64,000 bases of DNA from Gallionellaceae bacterium (GTDB taxonomy: Bacteria; Pseudomonadota; Gammaproteobacteria; Burkholderiales; Gallionellaceae), in contig JBCKTZ010000002.1 in assembly GCA_038925245.1 (NCBI GenBank), positions 11,568 through 75,567 on the forward strand, in the 5' to 3' direction. Below the pieces are notes generated by a model, which saw nothing but the letters and a program-made list of their open reading frames with translations, made no database searches and was not told the origin of the DNA. Positions 4,493 through 18,519 of the stretch are shown here, piece after piece. How positions within the stretch are numbered: position 1 is the stretch's first letter; the number at the start of each line of letters is the position of its first letter. The position numbers and the translations under genes were made by a program.

Positions 4493-4903
4493 TTAATTAC
4501 GAACCACCGGCAATCCTTCGCTGACCCAGCGGGTGATGCCGTTTTTAACGTTGTATACTTTTGTGTAGCCTAGTTGCTCGATCAGTGCGCGCGACAGCGT
4601 GTCAGTACGACTACCGGTTCGGCAGATCAAAATAACGGGATCATTTTTGCCCACAGCTTGTGTGAATTTGCTGACAAACTCCGGATTGACGCGACCTTTG
4701 TCATCTACAAAGGTCAGCTTGTTGCTGCCTTCAACCACACCGGTCTGCTTCCATTCCTCTTCGCGGCGAATGTCGTATACAGGAATACCTTGCGCTTGCA
4801 GGGACTTCAGTTGTTGATTGTCGATGTTGGTATAGGGTGTTGCTCCGCAAGCAGAAAGCGGTAGTAGTAGGAGCAGTATGAGCGCGAAATTCTGGAAGTT
4901 CAT
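4493..4903 (-). CDS. exported rhodanese-domain sulfurtransferase
   Basis: N-terminal signal peptide and the active-site loop CRTGSRT typical of single-domain rhodaneses. Confidence 0.8.
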   Translation of the reverse strand: MNFQNFALILLLLLPLSACGATPYTNIDNQQLKSLQAQGIPVYDIRREEEWKQTGVVEGSNKLTFVDDKGRVNPEFVSKFTQAVGKNDPVILICRTGSRTDTLSRALIEQLGYTKVYNVKNGITRWVSEGLPVVRN

Positions 4904-5034
4904 GGTATGGATTTTAACTTGGGTGAGTTGCGTATGGCGGGAAAACGCAATTTTAACATCAAGCCGTGCAAATGGTTATTTGCGACTGCGGCTGCAACTG
5001 AAGTTAATCTCCTAGACTTTCAGAAAATAAAAAA

Positions 5035-5056
5035 GGCAGGGAAGCCCCTGCTTTTT
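5035..5056 (-). terminator. rho-independent terminator (bidirectional hairpin GCAGGG-AAGC-CCCTGC flanked by A- and T-runs)
   Basis: Seen directly in the sequence. It lies ~110 nt beyond the tRNA-Leu 3' remnant at 5168-5189, as expected for the tRNA's original terminator. Confidence 0.55.
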
Positions 5057-5167
5057 TATAAACGTGCGGCGAATTACTTAGCTACTGCATCACCTTTCAC
5101 TATCCGTGTCAGGTTCAATAACGCTAATTTATTCTGTTGCGTTGACAATCAGCGTAACTTTATGTGT

Positions 5168-5189
5168 TGGTGCGGGAGGGGGAATCGAA
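5168..5189. repeat. distal att direct repeat (displaced 3' fragment of tRNA-Leu)
   Basis: TGGTGC-GGGAGGGGGAATCGAA matches 18433-18455 (TGGTGCCGGGAGGGGGAATCGAA) apart from a 1-nt deletion. Confidence 0.75.
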
Positions 5190-5355
5190 AAACAAGCTGT
5201 ACGCCTTATATATACTAGGTTTGCAGATTGTCATTTCTAATGTTACTGTAAAAGTTACTGCATTCCCGTCCCGCTACTACTTCAGTTTTAATCGTGATGA
5301 TGAAGTTTAACAGGTAAGCATGGCGGAAGTGCATTTTATGTTTTGTCTGCACTCA

Positions 5356-5432
5356 GGGTGGTGTATGGAAATAAAAAAATCCAGTGCAGGGGTTTTTGTC
5401 CTGTACGAATTTTTTATTTCCATACACCACCC
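5356..5432. repeat. perfect 23-bp inverted repeat (large hairpin) near the island end
   Basis: GGGTGGTGTATGGAAATAAAAAA (5356-5378) is the exact reverse complement of 5410-5432. The loop is 31 nt. Confidence 0.8.
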
Positions 5433-6278
5433 GCAAACGATAACGGTGGCGTGATGGTGTGGGCGCTTTTGTTTCATGCCTGCACCATGACGTTGCCTCG
5501 ATAAACAACATACACTCCCGCTATGAATAATGCGCGCAGCGACTACACCTCTCCTTATAAAACCAACCCGGCGAAGCCGCCATATTAAGCATTGCCTCGC
5601 CTTGCCCGCCCCTGCTCTTTCCAGCGAGCGATGCAGGACACAGTACTGTGAACTGTTTGCGTGGATGCGGGTTTACCAAGGGCAAGGGGTGGCAGTGCGG
5701 ACGGGTGCGGTCATGCCTTTGTTTCATTTGACCGCTAGGGGGCTGGGGGGCGTTAGAGGGAAAGCGCCCCCGAACAAACCGCGAAGCGACAACACCGCAG
5801 AACAAACACCGCGCAGCGACAAGAGGAAGAGAAGATATAGGTCGGCACGACCATGCAGCAAAAAGCGAAGGGGCGATGATTTACCAGCCCTGTTTTGCTG
5901 CCCTTCACTATGGTGATAGACGTTGACCTGGTGGCGGTATTTACCCGAAGGGCGCAAGACATAACGGTCTCTTGTACGAACCTAGAGGGCGGGCGGCTTT
6001 ATGCCCGGCGCTTGCGCTTTGTACAAGACGCCGTTATGTTAAAACACCGCCACACTAACAACCGGCGCAGCCGACCACACATTACCTCGAACCGTTGCAG
6101 GGGCGCTGAACTGTCAGGCTACCAGTGCACGAGCCGCCTACGAACCGCAAGCACCTGGCGAGGCTTTTTTCGCGAGGTGCGCAGTGGTGAAGCGGCGGCG
6201 GGAACGGAGCAACACACTGTCCACGGAGTAGAAGCCAGGGGCGGTAAGCGTGGCGGATAATCAAAAAATGCGATGGGG

Positions 6279-6533
6279 TTATTTGCGCTTTTTGAGGTCG
6301 CTTAATTGCTTGCCGATTTGCTTATTCACTGCGGATGCCTCTTTAATATTGTCGCGATCCTCTTCGCTGAGCGGTTCATGCAAACCATGCTTGGCCATTT
6401 TGAGTTGCAGGAGACAAGTCTTCAGCATAGTGACAAGAATTTTTCTTCGCGCAGTCCAGCTCACACTTCGAGGCCGTTCGACCAACTCACTTTGCATCTG
6501 AATCAAATTGGCTAGTAAAAATTTTGTACTCAT
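6279..6533 (-). CDS. hypothetical small helical protein (84 aa) with a basic C-terminus
   Basis: This is the only plausible ORF in the interval and I recognise no motif. The coding call is uncertain. Confidence 0.4.
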   Translation of the reverse strand: MSTKFLLANLIQMQSELVERPRSVSWTARRKILVTMLKTCLLQLKMAKHGLHEPLSEEDRDNIKEASAVNKQIGKQLSDLKKRK

Positions 6534-6776
6534 ACAACCCCCTTAATTATTGATGCGTGGGAAAACTCACCTATCCAATATCTTTATTTCATTACCAAGC
6601 CAGTCTATAGGAATAGAACATGCAATGCATCCATCGTGGTCGATCATCGGCTGCAAGTCTGCATACCCCCCCCCCCACAGGCGGACAGCGTATAGAGGGC
6701 CCGGCCTTCATTTATCTTAGCCCCGCATTCCTCAGGCAGTTTTTAAGTGCTGTAAACCCTTATATACCCCACCCTG

Positions 6777-7037
6777 TTACAGCCTTGCCTCAGCCATCAA
6801 GTCCATCAGGCTTACATCAAGGGCTTTCGCAATTTTCAGCAATGTGAGCACGGCCACGTTGTTATCACCACGTTCCACACGTCCTATGTAGCTGCGGTCA
6901 ATCTCTGCCATCAGCGCAAGTTTTTCTTGTGATATGCCTTTCTGTTTACGAATGCAGCGGATCGCTTCGCCCAAGGCGATGAGCGCGGGATGTTGACGAT
7001 GTTGGGAGAGGTTAGGCATCATTCCGTTATACTGCAT
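6777..7037 (-). CDS. XRE-family helix-turn-helix transcriptional regulator
   Basis: Classic HTH_3 core: LGEAIRCIRKQKGISQEKLALMAEIDRSYIGRVERG. Confidence 0.85.
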   Translation of the reverse strand: MQYNGMMPNLSQHRQHPALIALGEAIRCIRKQKGISQEKLALMAEIDRSYIGRVERGDNNVAVLTLLKIAKALDVSLMDLMAEARL

Positions 7038-7045
7038 AAGAATCC

Positions 7046-7061
7046 AAGGTACATGTACCTT
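7046..7061. promoter_or_regulatory. perfect 16-bp palindrome AAGGTACATGTACCTT, candidate operator in the XRE/nuclease divergent promoter
   Basis: Seen directly. It lies 9 nt upstream of the XRE start codon, between the divergent genes. Confidence 0.55.
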
Positions 7062-7122
7062 TTTTAATTGTTACTTGCTCGACCCTGAGTATTGACTGAG
7101 GCGGCTCTGATTTGAATGAACA

Positions 7123-7551: not shown

Positions 7552-7751
7552 TTCGGACTGGATGGCACATAGGTAAATGGTAGCGCCCCCTTTATTCTGC
7601 CCTACCATGTTGCATTGACATGCGCTACGTTCAAGGCGAGTCTGCGGACAGACAGCAAGACAAACGAAAAAAATAGTGTATCCGGGGTTCTCTGTTGAAA
7701 ATACACCGCCCAACACATCTTAATACCACTCACCCTAGGGAGAATTCATTC

Positions 7752-10082
7752 ATGAAAAGTTTGATCTGTTCTTTGTTGCTGTCGCTGGCACTCACCGTCG
7801 GTGCGTCGGTGCAAGCGCAGACGTTTGAGCAGTCGGTGGCGGCCAATGATCGCAAGGATTTCCGCACGGCGTTTGCAGGGTTTAAAAAGCTGGCCGAGAA
7901 GGGGAGTGCCGGGGCGCAGAGGAGCCTAGGTGAGATGTATCACTACGGCGAAGGCGTTCCCAAGGACTACCAGCAGGCCTTGGCGTGGTACCGCAAGGCC
8001 GCCGACCAGGGGGATGCCATGGCGTGGTTCCGCCTGGGTGAGATGTATAACAACGGCCAAGGCGTGCCCAAGGACGATCAGCAAGCCGTGGTGTGGTTCC
8101 GCAAAGCAGCCAAGCAGGGGAATGCTCGTGCGCAGATCAGCCTGGGTGAGATGTATCGCTACGGCCAAGGCGTGCCCAAGGACGATCAGCAAGCTGCAGC
8201 GTGGTACAGGAAAGCCGCCGAGCAGGGGGATGAGGGCGCACAGTACAACCTTGGCAATATGTATGCCGACGGTCGAGGAGTGCCCAAGGACGAGCAGCAA
8301 GCAGTGGCGTGGTACCGCAAAGCCGCCGAGCAAGGGGATGGCATGGCGCAGGACAAACTGGGCAATATGTATGCCGACGGTCGAGGAGTGCCCAAGGACG
8401 AGCAGCAAGCAGTGGCGTGGTACCGCAAAGCCGCTGAAAATGAGAGCCACTTTATGTGGCAGTTTCGCTTTCGTCGAGGAGAACCCAAGAACGAGCAGCA
8501 GAAGATGGCGTGGTATCGCATAGACGCCGAGCAGGGAAATGCCAGTGCGCAGGCCATGCTGGGCATGATGTATGATCACGGACGAGGCGTGCCACAGGAC
8601 TACCAGCAGGCGGAGGTGTGGTACCGCAAAGCAGCCGAGCAAGGGAATGCCGTGGCGCAGTTCGGCCTAGGAAAGATGTATGAACACGGCCTAGGCGTAC
8701 CCAAGGACGAGCAGCAAGCCATGGTGTGGTACAGGAAAGCCGCAGAGCAGGGCTATGTCGTGGCACAGTACAACCTAGGCCAGATGTATTTCATGGTCAA
8801 AGGCGAGGCGCGCGATCTCAAGCAAGCCGCAGCGTGGTACCGCAAGGCCGCCGAGCAGGAGCTTGCTAACGCGCAGAGCATGCTAGGCTATATGTATGAA
8901 CACGGCCTAGGCGTACCCAAGGACGAGCAGCAAGCTGTGGTGTGGTATAGGAAAGCCGCCGAGCAGGGGTTTGCCAGTGCGCAGCGCAAGCTCGGCCTGA
9001 TGTATCGCATAGGCCAAGGCGTGACACTCGACCCCAGGCAAGCCTTTTACTGGTGGACCAAAGCTGCCGATCAGGGCTATGCCGATGCTCAGTTCGACCT
9101 GGGCTATATGTATGAATTCGGCCAAGGCGTGCCAAAGGACGTACAGCAGGCGGTGGCGTGGTACCGCAAAGCCGCCGAGCAGGGGCATGCCATGGCGCAG
9201 ACAACCATGGGCGTGATGTATCGCAAGGGCCAAGGCGTACCCAAGGATGAACAATCGGCTTATTTATGGTGGCTGCTGGCCAGTGCACAGGGGAATCAAC
9301 ATGCAGCAAATTTCCGTGATTCGGTGGAGTCCATCTTGTCTCCCGAGCAACGCGCCGCCGCGCAAGCCGCCGCGCGCAACTGGCAGCCCAAAACCGCCGC
9401 GCAATCCAGCAATGACCCCGGTGGAAGTTCCGCTGACTCCGGTGGCTCGAACTCCGCCCCTAGCCACGCGAAAGCCCAAGCCGACAGTACCGGCAGTGGC
9501 TTTCGCGTGGCGCGCGACGCCATCGTCACCAACCATCATGTGATTGACGGCTGCAGCCGCTTGCACGTCAACGGCACCGCCGCCCAGGTGCGCGGCAGCG
9601 ATGCGCGTAGTGACCTAGCCTTACTGGGTGTTAATCTGCCAGGCCCCAGCGTCAGCTTGCGGGCGCAGCGCGCGGCGGTGGGCGAACCGGTGGCAGTAGC
9701 GGGGTACCCGCTGCGTGGCCTACTCTCGGGTTTCAACATGACCACCGGCAACCTCAGTAGCCTGTCTGGCCTGGGGGGCGACACACGCTATCTACAGATC
9801 ACCGCGCCGGTGCAGCCCGGCAACAGCGGCGGCCCCATGCTGGACTCGGCGGGCAACCTGATGGGTGTGGTGGTGTCCAAGCTGGACGCGATCAAGCTGG
9901 CCAAGATCACCGGCGACATTCCGCAAAACGTCAACTTCGCGATTAACGCCAATGTGCTGCGCTCGTTCCTAGATGCCAACAGCGTGGACTACAACAGCGC
10001 CAGCTCCGACAAGCCACTACCGCCCACGGCGATTGCAGAAAAGGCCAAGGGCTTTACTGTGTTGGTGGAGTGCTGGAAGTGA
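7752..10082 (+). CDS. exported Sel1-repeat (SLR) protein fused to a C-terminal trypsin-like (S1C-type) serine protease domain
   Basis: Sec signal peptide (...ASVQA/QT). I count 13 units of 36 aa with a GxMYxxGxGVxxD...AxxWYRKAAEQG core. The C-terminal domain has TNHHV (His), SDLALL (Asp) and GNSGGP (Ser). The start is set at ATG 7752. Confidence 0.85.
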   Translation: MKSLICSLLLSLALTVGASVQAQTFEQSVAANDRKDFRTAFAGFKKLAEKGSAGAQRSLGEMYHYGEGVPKDYQQALAWYRKAADQGDAMAWFRLGEMYNNGQGVPKDDQQAVVWFRKAAKQGNARAQISLGEMYRYGQGVPKDDQQAAAWYRKAAEQGDEGAQYNLGNMYADGRGVPKDEQQAVAWYRKAAEQGDGMAQDKLGNMYADGRGVPKDEQQAVAWYRKAAENESHFMWQFRFRRGEPKNEQQKMAWYRIDAEQGNASAQAMLGMMYDHGRGVPQDYQQAEVWYRKAAEQGNAVAQFGLGKMYEHGLGVPKDEQQAMVWYRKAAEQGYVVAQYNLGQMYFMVKGEARDLKQAAAWYRKAAEQELANAQSMLGYMYEHGLGVPKDEQQAVVWYRKAAEQGFASAQRKLGLMYRIGQGVTLDPRQAFYWWTKAADQGYADAQFDLGYMYEFGQGVPKDVQQAVAWYRKAAEQGHAMAQTTMGVMYRKGQGVPKDEQSAYLWWLLASAQGNQHAANFRDSVESILSPEQRAAAQAAARNWQPKTAAQSSNDPGGSSADSGGSNSAPSHAKAQADSTGSGFRVARDAIVTNHHVIDGCSRLHVNGTAAQVRGSDARSDLALLGVNLPGPSVSLRAQRAAVGEPVAVAGYPLRGLLSGFNMTTGNLSSLSGLGGDTRYLQITAPVQPGNSGGPMLDSAGNLMGVVVSKLDAIKLAKITGDIPQNVNFAINANVLRSFLDANSVDYNSASSDKPLPPTAIAEKAKGFTVLVECWK

Positions 10083-10202
10083 GCTTGCCGACGCGACCAT
10101 ACACGTGATGGTGTCAAATGTTGAAGATAATGGAATCGTCCCCTTTGTCGCGAACTTACTAGCCAATCTGAAGCAGAACTAAGCACCCCGAAAGAGAAAA
10201 CT

Positions 10203-12248
10203 ATGACACGATCAATTCAAATCTTTTTGGCTGCCTTTGCCATATTGTTGGTGGGTTGCGATAACAGCACATCGACCACGAGCGCCGAAAAATCCCAAGC
10301 CACCAATGCAGCTAACACGAGCAACAAGATCGATCCCAAGAACTACGACGGGCCACTTTTCCCGGCCATAAAGGATGGAAAATATGGCTTTATTGATACC
10401 AAGGGAAACTTTTTAATTCCTCCAACCTTCACGTCAGCCGAAAACTTTAGCGAGGGAATGGCTGCGGTATATGTGGGAGGACGATCATTTATTTACGGAG
10501 AATCAGGTCAACACATAAGCCTAGAAGGCGGGAAATGGGGTTACATTGACCGTACTGGAGAAATTAAAATCCCCCCACAGTTTGGAGAGGCCGCACAATT
10601 CAATGAAGGCCTTGCGTTCGTAGCGGGCGACATAGGCCATAAAGAGGCTTGGGGGTTTATTGACGCACAGGGTTTGTACAAAATCAATCCGAAATATGGG
10701 CCTGAGCAATCTTCCTTTAAAAACGGAATCGCCTTTGTTAGGTTGGCTGATAGTGATAAAGTAACCCTTGAAAATGGTCACTGGTTTGACGTATCAGGTA
10801 AGGAAATTAGTATTGCTGAAGCAGCAGAAAAAATGGCCAAGCACTCAGCGCTTAACAAAAAGCACTGGATTGACGCTTCAGGCAAAGTAATTGACGGCAT
10901 CAAGGCGTTAAGCATAATCAAATTGAATCGCATAGCTTTTGAACAAAAAAATACTCTCGAGATAGATGGGGGAGCTTATTACAACGTTGGTCAAGAGGGC
11001 TTGAAAGACAGCAAGGGGCGCGTTGTTGTCAAAGCAAAGTTTTATTCTATTGGAGATTTTTATAACAAATTCGAAGGGAAGGTATATGAATTCACAGATG
11101 CTTGCATAGTATCTACTTGGATAACATACCCGAGGCGCAATTATGCGATGATGAAAACAGTAAAATGTGGATTAATCGACATGAATGGGGATTTTGTTCT
11201 TGCTCCCGATTTTGATCGAGTAAGACTAATATCTGAAGATTTAGCCGTGTTCACCATAGGGTGTGATCGCCAGTGGGAGTGTGATGCCGCGAAAGAAGGC
11301 ATTTTCAGTATCAAAGAACAAAAAATTATTGTAAATCCGCAATTTAAGTGGATTGGAAAATTACGTGATGGGCTGATTGCAGTTGATCTCGACGGCAAGT
11401 TGGGGTTCATCGATGTCAGCGGTAAGTATGTCATTCAACCTCAATTTACTTCTGCATTACTCTTTAAAGATGGATTGGCTCGAGTTGGCTTAGCTGACTA
11501 TATCAACAAGACCGGCGAGTATGTGTACAAGGGTTCAATAGGCAATCTGCAACCAAAGCCCAAGGAAACCACTGCTTCACCTGGCGCTGGCAACCCTGTA
11601 TCGGCGAGTGGATCACTGGCTAAAAAAGGTACCGGAACGGTTTTTATTATCAGCAAGGAAGGCCACGCGATAACCAACCACCACGTTGTCGGTGGCTGTA
11701 GCGAACTTCGTGTCGAAGGCCGTGAAGGGGTGGCTAAACTCGTTACCGCTGACGAGGTCAATGATCTGGCGCTGATTAAGGTTCCTGGAAATATATCAGC
11801 CACGGCAACCATCGCCGCTGATCCGGTAAAGCTGCGGCAGGGCGATGACATCATCGTATTCGGCTTTCCGCTCAACGCTGTGCTGTCGTCGGGTGGGAAC
11901 CTGACGCCAGGCGTGGTCAGCGCGCTCACCGGCCTCGGCAACAACACCAACCAGATTCAGATTACCGCGCCGATCCAGCCCGGTTCCAGCGGCAGCCCGG
12001 TGCTGAACAAGAAGGGTGAAGTCGTCGGCGTGGTGTCGATGAAACTCGATGATATAAAGATGGCGAAGGCGACAGGGCAGTTCGGTCAGAACGTCAACTT
12101 CGCCGTGAGCGGCCAGACCCTGAAATCCTTCGTCGATACGCACAAGGTCAGGTATCGCAGCGGCGGGATGCTGTCGTTCGAGAAGAGCACCGCCGACCTC
12201 GCAGACGAGGCGCGGAAATGGACTCTGGTGGTGGAGTGCTGGAAGTAA
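10203..12248 (+). CDS. lipoprotein with WG-containing beta-repeats fused to a C-terminal trypsin-like serine protease domain
   Basis: Lipobox LLVGC. GKYGFID / GKWGYID / EAWGFID / KLGFID repeats recur (WG/KWG repeat type). The C-terminal domain has TNHHV, NDLALI and GSSGSP, and the C-terminal tail matches the 7752-10082 protein. Confidence 0.8.
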   Translation: MTRSIQIFLAAFAILLVGCDNSTSTTSAEKSQATNAANTSNKIDPKNYDGPLFPAIKDGKYGFIDTKGNFLIPPTFTSAENFSEGMAAVYVGGRSFIYGESGQHISLEGGKWGYIDRTGEIKIPPQFGEAAQFNEGLAFVAGDIGHKEAWGFIDAQGLYKINPKYGPEQSSFKNGIAFVRLADSDKVTLENGHWFDVSGKEISIAEAAEKMAKHSALNKKHWIDASGKVIDGIKALSIIKLNRIAFEQKNTLEIDGGAYYNVGQEGLKDSKGRVVVKAKFYSIGDFYNKFEGKVYEFTDACIVSTWITYPRRNYAMMKTVKCGLIDMNGDFVLAPDFDRVRLISEDLAVFTIGCDRQWECDAAKEGIFSIKEQKIIVNPQFKWIGKLRDGLIAVDLDGKLGFIDVSGKYVIQPQFTSALLFKDGLARVGLADYINKTGEYVYKGSIGNLQPKPKETTASPGAGNPVSASGSLAKKGTGTVFIISKEGHAITNHHVVGGCSELRVEGREGVAKLVTADEVNDLALIKVPGNISATATIAADPVKLRQGDDIIVFGFPLNAVLSSGGNLTPGVVSALTGLGNNTNQIQITAPIQPGSSGSPVLNKKGEVVGVVSMKLDDIKMAKATGQFGQNVNFAVSGQTLKSFVDTHKVRYRSGGMLSFEKSTADLADEARKWTLVVECWK

Positions 12249-12264
12249 GGGCGAGTGAACAACT

Positions 12265-12576
12265 TCACTTCGGGGCATGCCAGGTCGCTTTAAAGCCCCC
12301 GTCCCGCCATCCCCTTAATCGGGTGTATCCCAGCTTGCGCAAAATATCTCCAAGCTCTCCTGCTTGAGCTTGGCGGCCTTGTCGACCTTTCAGTGACACA
12401 CGGAAGAACTCCAACGACTGGGGCTGAGTGCGCTGTTCGGGGGGCAGTCCCGCGATAAATTTCTGTAACCGCTGGATCAAGGGGGCGAGGGGCCTTTCAG
12501 TTTCGGGCGCAGGGGTGGGTTTGATATGGCTGGCAGCCTTTATTTTTTCCATCCACGTTATGATATGGGCATCCAC
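12265..12576 (-). CDS. hypothetical protein (103 aa)
   Basis: ORF only. It is convergent with the protease gene and I recognise no motif. Confidence 0.45.
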   Translation of the reverse strand: MDAHIITWMEKIKAASHIKPTPAPETERPLAPLIQRLQKFIAGLPPEQRTQPQSLEFFRVSLKGRQGRQAQAGELGDILRKLGYTRLRGWRDGGFKATWHAPK

Positions 12577-12796: not shown

Positions 12797-12900
12797 TGCG
12801 TGATATGCGTGATATACCCCCCCTAAAACATAAACTTTTCTATAACTCTCTCGCATGGAAAAGTTTTGAGAAATAGGTCAATAATCACGCATATCACGCA
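12797..12900. promoter_or_regulatory. inverted pair of double GCGTGATA boxes next to an AT-rich tract; candidate island replication origin
   Basis: TGCGTGATATGCGTGAT (from 12797) is the perfect reverse complement of ATCACGCATATCACGCA (12884-12900). The site is immediately downstream of the primase gene and next to very AT-rich DNA (12600-12780). Confidence 0.45.
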
Positions 12901-12907
12901 CCCCTCG

Positions 12908-15271
12908 CTAGGCCGCTGCCATACCGTGCATGTTCAAGGCAAGCCCGCCAATATTCCGCTTGTCAGGCAGTATGGGGTAGCCGCGTTCCCCAAGTCGCCT
13001 GGTCAATCTCCTTTGCGCCAAAGGGTGATGCCCGTTATCCAGCGCCCATTTACGGTATGCCCGGTAGAGTAGGTCTTTGCGGGCTTTTTTATCCTGCCCT
13101 CTATCGCAGTGCTCAGCTAACCATTCGCCGATAGTGTCTTGCTCATCACGGTAAGCCGCCGTTGCGGCTTCAATCTTTTTGGGTACGGATAGGCCACCTT
13201 GCTGCCACTTCCGCAGTCCAGCCAGCGACCAATTAAGAATACCAGCCCCTTCATTTTTCAGTTTTTCCAGCAGTTTCGGATCACGCATTTTTTCCTCGAT
13301 AGTCACGTCAAATTGAACCAAACAAACACGCCGCCACATGCCATGGCTGCTGTCTCCAATTTCAGGCTTGTGGTTGCCTACGATTGCAAGCTTGTGTGTT
13401 GGTTGAAATGTGATGTCGGCCTTGCCGTATGGCACCCGGCCAGCCAGTGTGTCGCCGCCGGTCATTTCCTTGACCTTGGCCTCGGCCAGCTTCCGGCCTT
13501 CTTCTGTTTCGTTAGCATAGACAAAGCGCCTGCCTTTAAGGGAAACAATGTCAGGGCTTGCAGCTTGCGGACTCCGCTGGTGTTGCATCAACATTTCCGT
13601 GGCGATTTTTTTGGCGTAGTCACCAAGTAGCCATGCGAGTAATTCAACGAACACGCTTTTACCGTTCGCGCCGCTACCGTGCAGGAATACAAATCTCTGT
13701 TCTTGCACGCTACCCGTTAAGCAATACCCCACCCATCGCTGGAGAAATTTCTGCATTTCAGGATCGGGTTGAACATCGGCGAGGAACTGTTCCCATTGCG
13801 GACAGGTTGCCCCTTGGTCATAAATAACATTGCAACGTTTGGTCACTAGCAGGCTGGGCGACACGGGCAATAGCTTCCCGCCACGAAGATCAAGAACCCC
13901 ATTTGCCACCCCAAGCTGCATGGAGTCAGCGTCAAAGTCATTCAGGCTTCTAGTCATTCCACTTTCTGATGCGGCCATGCTGATCATCGCATTAATTTTT
14001 GGCTCTGTGCTGGACTGATCCACGTGCTTCATAAAACGCTTAACTTTTTGATCATCAGGATTCAGCTTCCACTGTTCCGCAGCGTTGGCGCGCATTGCCG
14101 CCACAACTTCCTTGCCCGCACGATCAGCCTCTCCCGGTTGTGCATGTACCCATCCGGCTGCATCGCTGAATTGCAGCACGTCGCCCGTTTCGTGCACGAA
14201 CAGCAGCTTGTCCCGGAACATGTCCGCAAAGGCTTTTCCGTTCATAATATCTCCGGCAGTGTCACCGTGCGAGGCTTCAATCGAGACTGTATTTCCTGTA
14301 TCTACCCAGCCTGCCTCTTTCGCGTGGTGAACCAGCGTGCCGAAGCCGATTCCGCCATCTGGATTAAATGAGTTCCAGTCCTTAGTAAAGGCAACTGCGT
14401 CATATTTGTCCGGCGCGGTTGCTGACCACTCAAGGGCCAGTACCTGAGCACACCGCCAACCTGTACTCGCTATCGCCCATATTATATTGAGCCAGCGCGT
14501 CCGATCACAGTCAGCAGGAATAGTTGCCAACATTGATTTCACACGCTCGATTTCTTCCGGCGTTTCCGGTGGGGGCGGTGATTTCAAATCGGCGGTAAGG
14601 GCATGGTTTAGAGCTAGGCTGTCAGTAGAGTACTCTGCCTTTTGCACCTGATCGAGAAGCAAACCACTAGACATCTCATCCGGGGTATACACTATCGCAT
14701 TCTGATTTGCCAAAACGATGCGCACTAGAAACGCCCCGCACTCATTAACGTAGATACCCCCCTTTTTCTTCTGGTGATAGAACCCTGGCAGTCGTAGCAC
14801 GCGGGGGAGATCAATTACATTCTTATCGGTAGCAAATTTCTTGGCAAGCGCAACTTGAACCTGTCTGAATTCGTTTAAGTTACAGACTGCCTCCCAATAA
14901 ACATGGTAATTGCCTGGGCTGGATTCAATCAGCATTAGCGGAAGAACAGACCCGTCGCGAGCCGCCATAATTATTGGCTTGAGTGGGGCGCCGTCCGTGT
15001 CAGCAAAGTAACAGCGTACCTTGATAATGTTAGCCGCTTTGCGCCCATGTAAATCGGTCTGATTGATCGTTACGAATATTCCCGCGCCTTGCGCATTCAG
15101 GCCGGATAGCGCTTGACTGTGCTGCACCAGCGTGCCGTGAAAAATCCGCACTAACTGCGGGCGACCTTCATCGCTGTCGTCGAAGGTTTGAAAAGTGAAC
15201 TGATCGGTCTGTGGGTCGAGAAGATGCAGGAAACGCGCAGCCTCCGTGAGGTCGATTTGATTGGCTATCAT
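12908..15271 (-). CDS. P4-family primase/helicase (N-terminal primase-polymerase region plus C-terminal SF3 NTPase)
   Basis: Walker A FLHGSGANGKS. The C-terminal half resembles the phage/plasmid primase P4-family domain (VGYCLTG..., D5-type NTPase). Confidence 0.88.
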   Translation of the reverse strand: MIANQIDLTEAARFLHLLDPQTDQFTFQTFDDSDEGRPQLVRIFHGTLVQHSQALSGLNAQGAGIFVTINQTDLHGRKAANIIKVRCYFADTDGAPLKPIIMAARDGSVLPLMLIESSPGNYHVYWEAVCNLNEFRQVQVALAKKFATDKNVIDLPRVLRLPGFYHQKKKGGIYVNECGAFLVRIVLANQNAIVYTPDEMSSGLLLDQVQKAEYSTDSLALNHALTADLKSPPPPETPEEIERVKSMLATIPADCDRTRWLNIIWAIASTGWRCAQVLALEWSATAPDKYDAVAFTKDWNSFNPDGGIGFGTLVHHAKEAGWVDTGNTVSIEASHGDTAGDIMNGKAFADMFRDKLLFVHETGDVLQFSDAAGWVHAQPGEADRAGKEVVAAMRANAAEQWKLNPDDQKVKRFMKHVDQSSTEPKINAMISMAASESGMTRSLNDFDADSMQLGVANGVLDLRGGKLLPVSPSLLVTKRCNVIYDQGATCPQWEQFLADVQPDPEMQKFLQRWVGYCLTGSVQEQRFVFLHGSGANGKSVFVELLAWLLGDYAKKIATEMLMQHQRSPQAASPDIVSLKGRRFVYANETEEGRKLAEAKVKEMTGGDTLAGRVPYGKADITFQPTHKLAIVGNHKPEIGDSSHGMWRRVCLVQFDVTIEEKMRDPKLLEKLKNEGAGILNWSLAGLRKWQQGGLSVPKKIEAATAAYRDEQDTIGEWLAEHCDRGQDKKARKDLLYRAYRKWALDNGHHPLAQRRLTRRLGERGYPILPDKRNIGGLALNMHGMAAA

Positions 15272-15892: not shown

Positions 15893-16117
15893 TTATTTTC
15901 CCCCTTCATCATTAGCAACACGCTCAATTAGTGCACGTATATCATCCACTTTCCAAGCAGTTGTTCGATTTGATAAGTGCACGCTGGCTGGGTATTTACC
16001 CGATGCCACCCCTGCCCACCACGATGATCGACCAACTGGGAAGACTGCTAATATTTGAGGTAGTCGAACGAAGCCTGTTGCTGGTAAAGAATTTGATAGC
16101 ATATTGACGGTCTCCAT
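15893..16117 (-). CDS. AlpA-family (phage_AlpA / excisionase-like) DNA-binding protein
   Basis: FVRLPQILAVFPVGRSSWWAGVASGKYP...W...DI pattern typical of AlpA/Xis-type winged HTH proteins on P4-integrase islands. Confidence 0.8.
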   Translation of the reverse strand: METVNMLSNSLPATGFVRLPQILAVFPVGRSSWWAGVASGKYPASVHLSNRTTAWKVDDIRALIERVANDEGGK

Positions 16118-16300: not shown

Positions 16301-16972
16301 TTATTTACCCTCTAAATTATCGGCAGTAGTTTGGCATACGTCACAATCGTGGTATTTCTTCCGCAGGATGTTTGCGGCCTGCTTTTCGTTAATAAATTTC
16401 TTATCCAATAAGTACATTGCTATTTGGTCAGGATACCATCTAGATTCTTTCTTTCCTCGCCCTACTGATGCGCGACAATCGAGCAACCCTGGATAACGTT
16501 TAGCTTCTCTAAAGCGCTTCTTAAAAGAATCTTCGTCGAGTTTATTTTGCAGCATAAAATCAGAAATTATTTTTGTTGATGATACTGCCTCAGATTTTCT
16601 AACCGGTGTGCTCGGCTTGTTCAATTTACACAATTCAGCAAGTGCAATCCGAGGAATATATAACTTATCACAACCAATTTCTTTTATGTGCTTTAGCGCG
16701 TCAGTACCTTGGAATAGCATCGTAGCGTCAGCCCCACCATGAGTGTCAATTGTACATAAAGGCAACGTACCATCAGCACACCACGCCAATAACAGCAATA
16801 CAGAGTTTTCCTTTGTAGCAACATAAGGAAAGTATCTGCGAATATCTTCAACTGTTAGGTTCGCAGCTGCCAATACACCATCAAAAACTTCTGCACCCCA
16901 AGTGTGAGCGCCCTGATTTAGATATAAATAAGTTTCAGCTTCGTCGATTGACAACAGTGTAGACGTGCCCAT
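16301..16972 (-). CDS. hypothetical protein (223 aa), AT-rich, translationally coupled to the integrase
   Basis: Its ATG (16972-16970) overlaps the integrase TGA in an ATGA junction. I recognise no motif. Confidence 0.55.
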   Translation of the reverse strand: MGTSTLLSIDEAETYLYLNQGAHTWGAEVFDGVLAAANLTVEDIRRYFPYVATKENSVLLLLAWCADGTLPLCTIDTHGGADATMLFQGTDALKHIKEIGCDKLYIPRIALAELCKLNKPSTPVRKSEAVSSTKIISDFMLQNKLDEDSFKKRFREAKRYPGLLDCRASVGRGKKESRWYPDQIAMYLLDKKFINEKQAANILRKKYHDCDVCQTTADNLEGK

Positions 16973-18240
16973 CACGCAACTTTTCCAAGCAGCGGTATCA
17001 CGTCCGCCCCAGCCTTGAGCTTGTCCAGATAATCCGCCCATTGCTGCATCATCTTGCGACGTTCAACAAGGTGAGCAGTGCGATTGTATGCGCGCCCGTT
17101 GGGGTCTTTAACCGCGTGTGCTAGTTGGTGTTCGATAAAGTCAGTACGCACACCCAGCTCTTCATCCAGAATCGTGCGAGCCATTGCCCGGAAGCCGTGG
17201 CCGCTCATTTCATCTTTTGCAAAACCCATGCGCCGCAGTGCAGCCAGAATGGCGTTATCGCTCATCGGCCTGCCATTGGTGCGCGCCCCTGGAAACACAT
17301 AGCGCCCGTCGCCAGTGAGTGCGTGAAGTTCGCGCAGAATTTCCACCGCTTGCGAGGATAGAGGGACAAGGTGCGGTTCGCGCATTTTCATGCGTTCGGC
17401 GGGTATATTCCATTCAGCTTTATCGAGGTCTATTTCCGCCCATTCCGCCTTGCGTAGCTCACCAGGACGCACGAATACCATAGGGGCGATGCGCAGGGCG
17501 CACTTGGTCACGAACTGGCCTTGATAGCCGTCTATGGCGCGCAGGAGTGAGCCAACGGCCTTGGATTCGATAATGGCGGCATGGTGTTTCACTTTTTTGC
17601 TTGGCATGTATTCGCATAAACGCGCGGTAGGATCGCCTTGCGAATAACCCTTCTTGGCGGCGTATCCGAATATCCGGCCACAGTTCCACAGGACGCGCCG
17701 TGCAATATCTAATGCGCCCCTGTCCACAATGCGCTGGACGGTTGCGTCAATTTCTGGCGTGGTGATTTTATTTATAGGGTGTCTGCCCAGCCAAGGAAAA
17801 ACATCCTTTTCCATCCAGCCGATGATTTTTCCCGTTTGCTTTTCGGATCGCCTGTCCGTTGGGACAGTCGCCCATTCACGCGCGACATCTTCAAAAGAAC
17901 CGGCAGCAGGCAACCCTTCATCTGTTCGCCGCTCTGCTTCCAGCGCCTCAGCTTGTTGCGCCTTGCTTGCCTTGCGTACATCGCTAGGATCAGTGCCCGC
18001 TGCCACCAACTCCCGCGCTGTATCCGCCTTGTTGCGCGCCGCCTTTAGTCCGGTGTCTGGATATACGCCAATGGAAAGAGTTTTGCGCTTACCACCAGTG
18101 CTGTAATCCAAGCGCCACCAGCGCGCGCCGTTCGGCTTGACCAGCAGATAAAGCCCGTCCCCGTCATTCAGGCGTTGTGTCGCGTCCGTGGGCTTGGTGT
18201 TGCGGATAGTCACATCCGTCTTGATTAGGTGTCGCACCAT
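16972..18240 (-). CDS. int: tyrosine recombinase, P4-type integrase
   Basis: N-terminal DUF4102-like arm-binding region (LNDGDGLYLLVKPNGARWWRLDY). The C-terminal catalytic region has ...HGFRAMARTIL... and ...HLVERRKMMQQWADYLD. It is adjacent to the tRNA 3' end. Confidence 0.92.
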   Translation of the reverse strand: MVRHLIKTDVTIRNTKPTDATQRLNDGDGLYLLVKPNGARWWRLDYSTGGKRKTLSIGVYPDTGLKAARNKADTARELVAAGTDPSDVRKASKAQQAEALEAERRTDEGLPAAGSFEDVAREWATVPTDRRSEKQTGKIIGWMEKDVFPWLGRHPINKITTPEIDATVQRIVDRGALDIARRVLWNCGRIFGYAAKKGYSQGDPTARLCEYMPSKKVKHHAAIIESKAVGSLLRAIDGYQGQFVTKCALRIAPMVFVRPGELRKAEWAEIDLDKAEWNIPAERMKMREPHLVPLSSQAVEILRELHALTGDGRYVFPGARTNGRPMSDNAILAALRRMGFAKDEMSGHGFRAMARTILDEELGVRTDFIEHQLAHAVKDPNGRAYNRTAHLVERRKMMQQWADYLDKLKAGADVIPLLGKVA

Positions 18241-18351
18241 TGCAGTAACTCCAGTAGAAAATGCAGTAACTTTTCAGAGAAAAACAGTAACAGGGGGTGT
18301 TACTGCATAAGTTACTGCAAATTTAGCCGGATTGCAATAGATGTTACTGCA
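18241..18351. promoter_or_regulatory. cluster of six GTTACTGCA / TGCAGTAAC boxes; candidate integrase/Xis arm-type binding sites
   Basis: Boxes at 18241, 18262 and 18284 in one orientation, and at 18299, 18311 and 18343 in the other. Two more lie at the far end of the island (5242-5262). Confidence 0.55.
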
Positions 18352-18432
18352 TTTCGCTGGACAAGAAAAAACCCGCAATGCTATAAGACATGCGGGTTTA
18401 AGGACTTCTTTGGACTTCTTCAAACTATAAAA

Positions 18433-18519
18433 TGGTGCCGGGAGGGGGAATCGAACCCCCACATCCTTGCGAATACTGGATTTTGAGTCCAGCGCGTCTA
18501 CCAATTCCGCCATCCCGGC
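18433..18519 (-). tRNA. tRNA-Leu (anticodon CAA), type II with a long variable arm
   Basis: The reverse complement folds as a cloverleaf: acceptor GCCGGGA/TCCCGGC, anticodon loop CTCAAAA, T-arm GGGGGTTCGATTCCCCC, encoded CCA. Confidence 0.9.

Follow-up and report, generated by a model that had tools for sequence, protein, structure and literature searches.

Introduction

The IncQ plasmid RSF1010 carries two single-strand initiation (ssi) sites, ssiA and ssiB, which are hairpins of DNA that are strand-specific and have C(GNA)G triloops at their tips, and on these hairpins the RepB' primase starts DNA primers (PMC8567376). An IncQ ssi site measures 40 nt and has CCTTTC as its 5' tail, a hairpin of 21 nt and a start at GTG, 4-6 nt beyond the hairpin on its 3' side (PMC8567376). 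Mini-hairpins of the type GCGNAGC or GCGNNAGC have an exceptional stability as DNA and a low affinity for SSB, and they occur at initiation sites in single-stranded DNA (ssDNA), such as the complementary-strand origins of G4, St-1 and alpha3, ssiA of RSF1010 (CCGAAGG) and the hairpin promoters of N4 (2026 review, PMC13037366). Here we describe a modular hairpin array that carries such mini-hairpins on one strand. It lies at the end of an integrated island in a 64,000-nt stretch of DNA from a Gallionellaceae bacterium (contig JBCKTZ010000002.1, positions 11,568 to 75,567), which is called the window in the following.

Integrase-plus-primase islands of this kind resemble phage satellites and are widespread carriers of defence and accessory genes, and the cis features common to them are poorly known. 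The satellite phage P4 is likewise an integrase-plus-primase element in a tRNA gene. Its crr is a non-coding cis region with direct repeats of about 100 nt that adjoins att away from int and works as duplex DNA through iterons of the alpha protein. Large structured RNAs such as ROOL, GOLLD and OLE, with several hundred nt and many covarying helices, are also found in mobile elements and near tRNA genes. For the DNA at 5263-6278 of the window, which has no convincing open reading frame (ORF), an initial annotation had suggested a large structured RNA or a cis-acting site such as an ssi. This broad reading has stood, as the segment is conserved in homologous islands, its helices covary and no degraded gene could be recovered.

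Identification and non-coding nature of the element

A 17-nt direct repeat with copies at 5173-5189 and 18439-18455 bounds an island of about 13.3 kb in the window, and the copy of CGGGAGGGGGAATCGAA at 18439-18455 is the 3' end of tRNA-Leu(CAA). The ORF-less stretch is located between the att repeat at 5173-5189, which is the integrase-distal island end, and the last gene from the tRNA inward, an 84-aa ORF (6279-6533, - strand). It had been called att-distal in the initial annotation; the region adjoins one att copy and is distal to the integrase and the tRNA instead. That no frame gives a believable protein was borne out, with 9-13 stops in each of the six frames and no Pfam match for the longest ORFs. 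The region is indeed richer in GC than its surroundings, but the contrast is moderate and not marked: 0.58 at 5530-6278 and 0.54 at 5263-6278 versus 0.51 for the whole window, with 0.41 (4900-5262) and 0.47 (6279-7100) in the flanks.

Judged by its homologues, the segment at about 5349-6262 is one copy of an uncatalogued, modular and strand-specific hairpin array with a core at 5585-6262 (Table 1). A profile of the core detected this single copy in the window (5712-6245). The family comprises 12 distinct DNA homologues (among the records L010, L011, L019 and L020-L047) and 76 clusters of spurious ORFs, which come from Nitrosomonadales and Sulfuricella-type genomes and from metagenomes; one cluster is labelled Sulfuricella sp. 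The homologues were collected on two ways. Exact-word scans used blocks conserved between the window and the small JGI contig L010. With 20-21-mers, the scan of metagenomes gave one real homologue, L011, and chance matches in high-GC coding DNA (L012-L014), and the scan of genomes gave L019, a Nitrosomonadales metagenome-assembled genome (MAG), and the chance matches L016 and L017. In L011, the element abuts a tRNA-Lys 3' fragment and hence is again at an island end. In addition, a protein collection was searched with a spurious ORF of 121 aa, which led to 7 clusters, and afterwards with a profile built from such ORFs, which led to 76, and their contigs were fetched as L020-L047. The 84-aa ORF was too rare as a search anchor, as it gave 3 clusters, most with only a decayed fragment of the 3' module M3; the homologues of this ORF in L001-L008 have only such decayed 3' fragments of the element alongside.

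No family of Rfam 15, including ROOL, GOLLD, OLE, HEARO, STAXI, C4/CI RNA, group II intron and retron msr, matched the non-coding region, and in the window only the tRNA-Leu reached the gathering threshold. At E<=10, the stretch 4900-6700 gave only chance matches of the miRNA type on the hairpin of module X, and at E<=1 no match was obtained with L020, L038, L011 and L019. Sensitive blastn of 5200-6600 against phage and plasmid collections gave no match. A search of IMG/VR for exact matches to three conserved 20-mers gave no real match, L015 being a chance match inside a gene, and no described equivalent was found in literature searches.

The GC-rich DNA of the element frequently prompts gene callers to predict ORFs, and such ORFs are annotated here in many metagenomes. 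Together with open stretches of 121-129 codons, this could point to a decayed protein-coding gene from a high-GC donor, the alternative raised in the initial annotation. However, the translations of the spurious clusters are rich in Arg, Pro and Cys, and at least 3 frames are used among the 76. The block TTTACCCGAAGGGCGCAAGACATAA is identical in the window and L011 and lies in different frames of their ORFs, and the conserved blocks are separated by 1- and 2-nt indels, which are tolerated. Since several frames run over identical DNA, the segment is not a pseudogene. No Pfam match was found at E<=1 except two at chance level (E 0.08 and 0.14, far below the cut-off), and the substitutions track base pairing, not codons. 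By these comparisons the decayed gene can be regarded as refuted for practical purposes. We conclude from the alignments and searches that the segment is a real non-coding element, conserved and under structural constraint, which forms a new family and is not in the current RNA or plasmid and phage references.

Base pairing and strand specificity

Base pairing was analysed in two domain alignments with 116 pairs in total, in which about 95% of the cells are paired and 24 pairs show double compensatory changes. In domain A (P3-P6, alignment A7, 10 sequences) with 58 pairs, 95.2% of the cells are paired, compared to 37-53% when the partners were slid by 1-3 columns, and 14 pairs had changed on both sides, compared to 1-6 after sliding. 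Domain B (M2, Ha and M3, alignment A8), also with 58 pairs, showed 95.9% paired cells versus 25-56%, and 10 pairs with double changes versus 0-3. In both domains, 0 of 500 shuffles reached the observed values.

The two alignments contain 112 G.T(U) cells (47+65) and 10 A.C cells (5+5), and this excess indicates that the structured strand is the + strand of the window. When 5585-6262 was folded as RNA, the minimum free energy of the + strand had a z of -4.9; the - strand reached -5.05 but was 19 kcal/mol weaker. Folded as DNA, the + strand had a z of -3.2. Taken together, these results show that the element is a single-stranded, base-paired form, and the pairing is compatible with RNA and with DNA. 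Conserved structure, compensatory changes and restriction to one strand are those of a structured non-coding RNA (ncRNA), and they do not separate RNA from ssDNA.

All helices named in the initial annotation were found, with a shift of at most one base, and there is more structure than expected by chance, which is conserved and covaries in the homologues. The long helix ACATAACGGTCTCTTGTAC (5959-5977 with 6021-6039) has 17 of 19 Watson-Crick pairs, or 18 of 19 with G.T. The hairpins GGTCGGCACGACC (5840-5852) and GCACCT...AGGTGC (6151-6180) have the coordinates given there, whereas the 3' arm of the outer helix (GTGGCGG, 5931-5937, with CCGCCAC) is at 6047-6053 and not at 6048-6054, and the hairpin GGGGGCG/CGCCCCC is one base off, at 5746-5752 and 5765-5771. 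The hairpin GGTCG-GCA-CGACC is not conserved in the homologues. The two units of about 25 nt were located at 5772-5826. A reading of these units as iterons (or as crr) was rejected, because they are copies of the mini-hairpin punctuation motif that is found all over the element.

C(GNA)G mini-hairpins and comparison with single-strand initiation sites

Between the modules, the + strand carries C(GNA)G mini-hairpins. CGC-GCA-GCG occurs twice and GGC-GAA-GCC, CGC-GAA-GCG, CCC-GAA-GGG and CGGC-GCA-GCCG once each, all flanked by A/C-rich runs (…AAC-CGCGMAGCG-ACMAMM…). Five GCGNAGC and one CCCGAAGGG are on the + strand within 540 nt and none is on the - strand; the window-wide rate of GCGNAGC is 0.47 per kb per strand. 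The motif CGCGMAGCGAC is found 3 times in the 64 kb, always in the element, with 0.09 expected. In the homologues, 2-7 C(GNA)G triloop hairpins are on the + strand and only 2 in total on the - strand, and the stems of the mini-hairpins covary. None of the conserved hairpins of the element has a GNRA or UNCG tetraloop.

The same 9-mers are present in the IncQ sites, CCC-GAA-GGG in ssiA and CGC-GCA-GCG in ssiB, and in the IncQ plasmids we verified that ssiA contains CCCGAAGGG and ssiB contains CGCGCAGCG. In the element, the C(GNA)G mini-hairpins typical of ssiA and ssiB (CCCGAAGGG, CGCGCAGCG and CGCGAAGCG) are on the + strand only. The ssi sites are used by RepB', a primase of the AEP type; the primase of the window island has a RepB_primase domain (E 6e-12), and that of the L040-type island is of the Prim-Pol type. 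The inverted, outward-reading copies in L020 and L026 recall the divergent layout of ssiA and ssiB. In contrast to the 40-nt IncQ unit, the element has stems of 3-4 bp, A/C-rich flanks and no GTG, and 5-7 mini-hairpins are combined with large hairpins over 0.6-1.1 kb. IncQ plasmids have one ssi per strand, inside oriV beside iterons, whereas the element has its signals on one strand only and is about 6-6.5 kb away from the iteron candidates. The element is not a member of the IncQ ssi class in the strict sense; what it shares is the mini-hairpin principle.

A tail-like string was noted on the - strand. The complement of the conserved P1 loop (5753-5765) is CTTTCCCTCTAAC and matches the start CTTTCCCCCTACC of ssiA/ssiB, which is bound by RepB', at 11 of 13 positions. 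It is the only such string, all other structural signals are on the opposite strand, and the chance estimate, rough and post hoc, is 0.02.

In its organisation, the element is like the complementary-strand origins (a similarity in sequence was not found, and no search aimed at it was made), i.e. ori-c of G4, St-1 and alpha3, the Ff intergenic region, the plasmid single-strand origins (sso) ssoA and ssoU and Frpo of the F plasmid. These are non-coding, orientation-dependent hairpin arrays, active in ssDNA only. Mini-hairpin sequences are also present at the priming sites of the origins of ssDNA replicons (PMC13037366). If the element were recognised by a host enzyme, as at these origins, this would explain its conservation across unrelated islands. 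The origins of ssDNA replicons are 140-500 nt long, in replicons for which an ssDNA stage is established, whereas the element is larger and genes for a rolling-circle Rep, a relaxase or phage morphogenesis are absent from its islands.

The reading that we favour, with a probability of about 0.4, is that the element may be an ssi- or sso-like array for second-strand initiation that would act as ssDNA. It is favoured because of the mini-hairpins, the long near-perfect helices of 22-35 bp, the lack of a conserved promoter and terminator, the modules that are dispensable and are permuted, duplicated or deleted between copies, the association with AEP-type primases, the one in the window being RepB'-like, and the common position and orientation in two islands with nearly unrelated proteins. 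Replication of the excised island would start at the iteron origin next to its primase-helicase gene. With a fork that passes through int and attP, the + strand of the element would be left as ssDNA and form long hairpins as well as C(GNA)G mini-hairpins that resist SSB, and these would be the single-strand initiation signals for the synthesis of the complementary strand. The proposed analogues are mitochondrial OL, the plasmid sso, the G4 and Ff origins and IncQ ssiA and ssiB. We infer in this proposal that DNA is the active form, that DNA synthesis is primed and that the fork has the geometry described.

Several points weigh against such an array. About 10% of the pairs are G.T, several of them invariant, and paths from G-C over G-T to A-T are frequent, which is at least as typical of RNA. 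The length of 0.6-1.1 kb is far more than any known ssi or sso needs, and the mini-hairpins, with stems of only 3-4 bp, come without the 5' tail, the 21-nt hairpin and the GTG start of ssiA. Since the same element is present in islands with different primases, a specificity for the island primase is unlikely. Copies without a visible primase island are found on short contigs, beside gmk in L036 and flanking an N-acetyltransferase (NAT)-DUF4910 pair in L020 and L026. Finally, the exposure of the + strand as ssDNA and the priming on the element are themselves proposals.

A large structured RNA as the alternative

Close behind in probability is a structured ncRNA of 0.6-1.1 kb with several domains, which would represent a new class. 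Transcription would run inward from the att-proximal island end, and the RNA would act in trans, e.g. by scaffolding or sequestering a factor of the host or of a helper. The covariation and the G.U excess on the + strand, with some G.U pairs invariant, and the better RNA fold of this strand are in line with an RNA, as are the long conserved unpaired blocks. Its size and complexity would be like those of the ornate RNAs, which also occur in phages and near tRNAs, and phage satellites can express abundant ncRNAs (PMC7567579). In the window, a weak sigma-70-like site (5502-5531, + strand) is found upstream of the core, and the terminator-like hairpin in module X could shield the RNA from outside transcription. 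However, the promoter-like site is not conserved in L040, where no sigma-70-like site was found, and the sharp 3' boundary has no detectable terminator. No Rfam match was obtained even at E<=10. Unlike ROOL, GOLLD and OLE, whose Rfam models do not match, the element has permuted and dispensable modules, its conserved short stems are capped by GNA triloops and not by GNRA or UNCG tetraloops, and no promoter or terminator is evident. Helices of 22-35 near-perfect pairs would be substrates of RNase III, and a single globular fold would not tolerate the variable order and number of the modules.

Other functions of an RNA were considered and rejected. An RNA-guided integration by complementarity to the own att or tRNA would not explain that P1 is, by inspection, the same in the tRNA-Leu and tRNA-Phe islands. 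Complementarity to the leaders of island genes, as for the CI RNA of P4, was not found above chance level, a 13-nt match (15991-16003) being inside an AlpA-like gene, and there was no Rfam C4/CI match.

Conserved position in otherwise unrelated islands

A complete island of 10.4 kb in tRNA-Phe (L040-L047; att repeat at 1884-1933 and 12281-12330, arm boxes at both ends) has the layout of the window island: the element (+), cargo, a helix-turn-helix (HTH) gene, the primase-helicase, small ORFs and the integrase at the far end. Its primase has Prim-Pol and PriCT_1/DUF3987 domains. Only the HTH protein (41% identity), one small protein (27%) and, weakly and partially, the integrase (28% over about 100 residues) align between the two islands. 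The element of the window and that of L040 gave a strong profile match (nhmmer E 1e-102) with an identity judged to be about 75%. By this comparison, the best-conserved part of two almost unrelated islands is the hairpin array and not a gene. In the two complete tRNA-integrated primase islands compared, it is at the integrase-distal end and reads inward.

Each island has its own origin candidate. In the window (12797-12900), TGCGTGATATGCGTGAT and a perfect inverted copy are 70 nt apart with AT-rich DNA between them, and L040 has an unrelated iteron/AT-rich candidate with TTTTGTCAGT at 6387-6565, beside the primase genes. The iterons TGCGTGAT of the window and TTTTGTCAGT of L040 are island-specific and absent from the common element. 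Since these origin candidates are elsewhere, the iteron origin and the shared element are different sites, and they lie roughly opposite to each other in the circle formed on excision.

The fixed place of the element next to attP and away from int is that of crr in P4, and the modules M2 and M3 are paralogous direct repeats of about 100 nt in non-coding DNA, also as in crr. This would suit a cis site in duplex DNA that exploits helper or own proteins, such as cos/pac, an oriT mimic or a crr-like replication enhancer, and a common helper that recognises the site would account for its conservation in islands whose proteins are unrelated. We regard such a site as unlikely, because neither the compensatory changes nor the 112:10 asymmetry of G.T versus A.C is required of a duplex. 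In addition, crr works through iterons, whereas TGCGTGAT is not repeated in the element, which has no direct repeats with iterons of its own primase-helicase, and no similarity to phage or plasmid records and no IMG/VR match of the three conserved 20-mers was found. The initial annotation had assigned cos and cargo to the corresponding position of P4-like elements. This is unsupported; the P4 map has crr there.

Modular organisation of the element

The modules of the window copy follow each other in the order X, P0, P1, A/C-rich linker, P3, P4, P5/P5a/P6, P7 and M2 (Table 1).

Table 1. Coordinates of the hairpin array and of associated island features in the window
Feature	Position	Strand	Description
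att core repeat	5173..5189		CGGGAGGGGGAATCGAA; marks integrase-distal island end
arm-type box	5241..5262		TGTTACTGTAAAAGTTACTGCA; repeats at 18298-18319 and 18338-18353; outside the conserved element
module X	5349..5520	+	long hairpin of ~77 nt (5356-5432), then conserved tail and small hairpin CATGCCTGCACCATG (5475-5489)
mini-hairpin CGC-GCA-GCG	5533..5541	+	punctuation motif CGCGMAGCGAC
mini-hairpin GGC-GAA-GCC	5570..5578	+	
module P0	5598..5690	+	helix CCTTGCCC (5600-5607) / GGGCAAGG (5680-5687)
module P1	5745..5771	+	hairpin GGGGGCG/CGCCCCC with conserved 12-nt loop TTAGAGGGAAAG
A/C-rich linker, two punctuation units	5772..5826	+	CGC-GAA-GCG (5780-5788), CGC-GCA-GCG (5810-5818)
P3	within 5855..5916	+	GCAGCAAAA (5855-5863) / TTTTGCTGC (5893-5901); inner GGGGC/GCCCT
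P4	within 5855..5916	+	TCAC (5905-5908) / GTGA (5913-5916)
P5/P5a/P6 domain	5931..6053	+	outer helix GTGGCGG/CCGCCAC; mini-hairpin CCC-GAA-GGG (5944-5952)
P7 mini-hairpin CGGC-GCA-GCCG	6063..6073	+	
module M2	6105..6203	+	single-stranded motif CTGTCAGGCTACCAGTGCACGAGCC, then long irregular hairpin (GCCG 6133-6136 ... CGGC 6196-6199)
3' tail	6204..6262	+	junction at ~6244/6245 where M3 was lost
iteron-type origin candidate	12797..12900		TGCGTGAT x2, ~70 nt AT-rich, ATCACGCA x2; directly 3' of primase gene
primase-helicase	12908..15271	-	RepB_primase, PriCT_2, D5_N, DUF5906 and Pox_D5 domains

The tip of module X (5384-5406 plus a T run) resembles a bidirectional terminator. Its stem is wholly different in sequence among the window, L035 and L040, and the flanks are conserved; translations suggest that X is upstream of the element in P0054 and P0065 as well. 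The P0 helix reads CCCCGGCC/GGCCGGGG in L037/L038 (alignments read by eye), and the linker has 1 or 2 punctuation units in the homologues. P6 is a helix of 22 pairs (5958-5980 with 6018-6040), 6 of them covarying, plus an apical hairpin, and the P5/P6 position in L019 is occupied by a long hairpin of entirely different sequence. P7 is CGCC-GCA-GGCG in L037 and CGCC-AAC-GGCG in L038. A 22-nt block of M2, CGCGAGGTGCGCAGTGGTGAAG, is invariant in all homologues with the M2 apex; the apex is missing in L040 and the whole M2 in L038. The window copy is without M3, a paralogue of M2 of about 85 nt that is present in 8 homologues, and from the sequence of the junction its loss is between short GGGCGGT repeats. 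Other copies have extra M3 and W modules (W in L040 and L019), and X, P0 or the M2 apex may be missing. All copies end sharply on the 3' side and vary in their 5' limit, and the whole non-coding stretch in L040 is about 1.07 kb. A pseudoknot between M3 and M2 (ACCACTGC/GCAGTGGT) was rejected, as it is not kept in L011 and L019.

In L035 (1624-1862), module X was found inside the element, between the linker and P3. There it is bracketed by two copies of a sequence of about 17 nt with a GCGTAGC mini-hairpin (AACCTGTGTAGCTGACC and AACCAGCGTAGCTGAACC; repeat AACCnGCGTAGCTG). Such arrangements suggest that modules are shuffled by recombination at the punctuation motifs.

Two inverted copies, both reading outward, flank aminoglycoside-N-acetyltransferase-like and DUF4910 genes in L020 (495-4617) and L026 (4283-8403). 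The NAT-proximal copy exists in two versions, B and C, which have the same 5' half and a different 3' half with different genes beyond.

The relocation of X between two copies of AACCnGCGTAGCTG, the contig with two inverted copies and the mosaic nature of copies B and C, which are the same in some parts and diverged in others, are what one would expect of a selfish or neutral modular repeat that serves no purpose for the island and spreads from one island to another by recombination at mini-hairpin junctions. In L040, 13 terminator-like matches on the - strand, versus 2.7 expected, would also fit a mere terminator insulator. Taken together, both are rated slightly less probable than a duplex site. 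The element is present in a single copy in the 64 kb of the source genome, its position and orientation are constant in complete islands, every module is under purifying selection for pairing, and unpaired blocks of 25-31 nt are invariant.

An exact match of 21-24 nt to the most conserved M2 block (GCGAGGTGCGCAGTGGTGAAG) was observed in a Thiothrix MAG (L018, 3288-3311), in AT-rich intergenic DNA beside an XRE-type gene. The surroundings show no further similarity to the element, and the match may be due to chance or to an isolated motif.

In L038, the element (293-895) has no M2 but an M3-like module, and a convergent gene for a 369-aa XerC/D-like tyrosine recombinase (912-2021) follows 17 nt later. 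This gene and the sharp 3' boundary might hint at the 3' end of the element as an integration site itself, to which we give low weight. No 3'-end repeat, which would be expected for an integration target, was found at the far side of the cargo.

Neighbouring genes

In the window, the gene order from the tRNA inward is a P4-type integrase (16972-18240, - strand), small ORFs and the primase-helicase, followed by two trypsin-like proteases with Sel1 or WG repeats, an SNase-like nuclease and an XRE regulator. The box TGTTACTGTAAAAGTTACTGCA, repeated at both island ends, is probably an arm site of the integrase. An uncalled AlpA/excisionase-like frame (…GKYPASVHLSNRTTAWKVDDIRALIE…) is present at 15940-16110 (- strand) in the gap between a 93-aa and a 246-aa ORF. 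The two large cargo proteins (7695-12248) have a common C-terminal trypsin-like protease domain, and their last 49 nt or so are near-identical. One has 12 Sel1 repeats from a periodic array of 108 nt (7864-9336), the other WG beta-repeats. The protease domains resemble that of the PADLOC system 'RT-Protease_XI', here without a reverse transcriptase.

The family of the 84-aa ORF is very rare, with three clusters among 5.8 billion proteins, and the ORF is always convergent to the 3' end of the element or to a decayed M3 remnant (window 6279-6533; L001-L010). The intergenic region that separates this ORF from the gene of the XRE regulator contains a run of 11 C (6667-6677), at which slipped-strand events could make the divergent or adjacent promoters phase-variable. 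Other copies of the element are flanked by genes of the defence-island type (NYN, GmrSD-like, UvrD/GajB-like, HD and ImmA-like).

Discussion

The hairpin array is new as a family, and its most probable modes of action are of known kinds. A further possibility, improbable in our view, is that it corresponds to an 'intergenic region' in the style of the inoviruses, in which a packaging-signal hairpin, a complementary-strand origin and hairpins for helper recognition would be combined. Otherwise unrelated islands would then be copied to ssDNA and transferred in this form, either with the help of a filamentous phage or on another route for ssDNA, and the DNA would be primed again in the recipient. 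On this reading, it would make sense that a non-coding kilobase is far better conserved than any protein of the islands.

If the element is a second-strand origin, as we favour, these islands would have a single-stranded stage in their replication or transfer, for which no one has searched so far. As an RNA, the element would represent a new class of large structured RNAs tied to mobile elements. Either way, the element provides a marker for such islands, a defined hotspot boundary for their variable cargo and an object that is directly testable.

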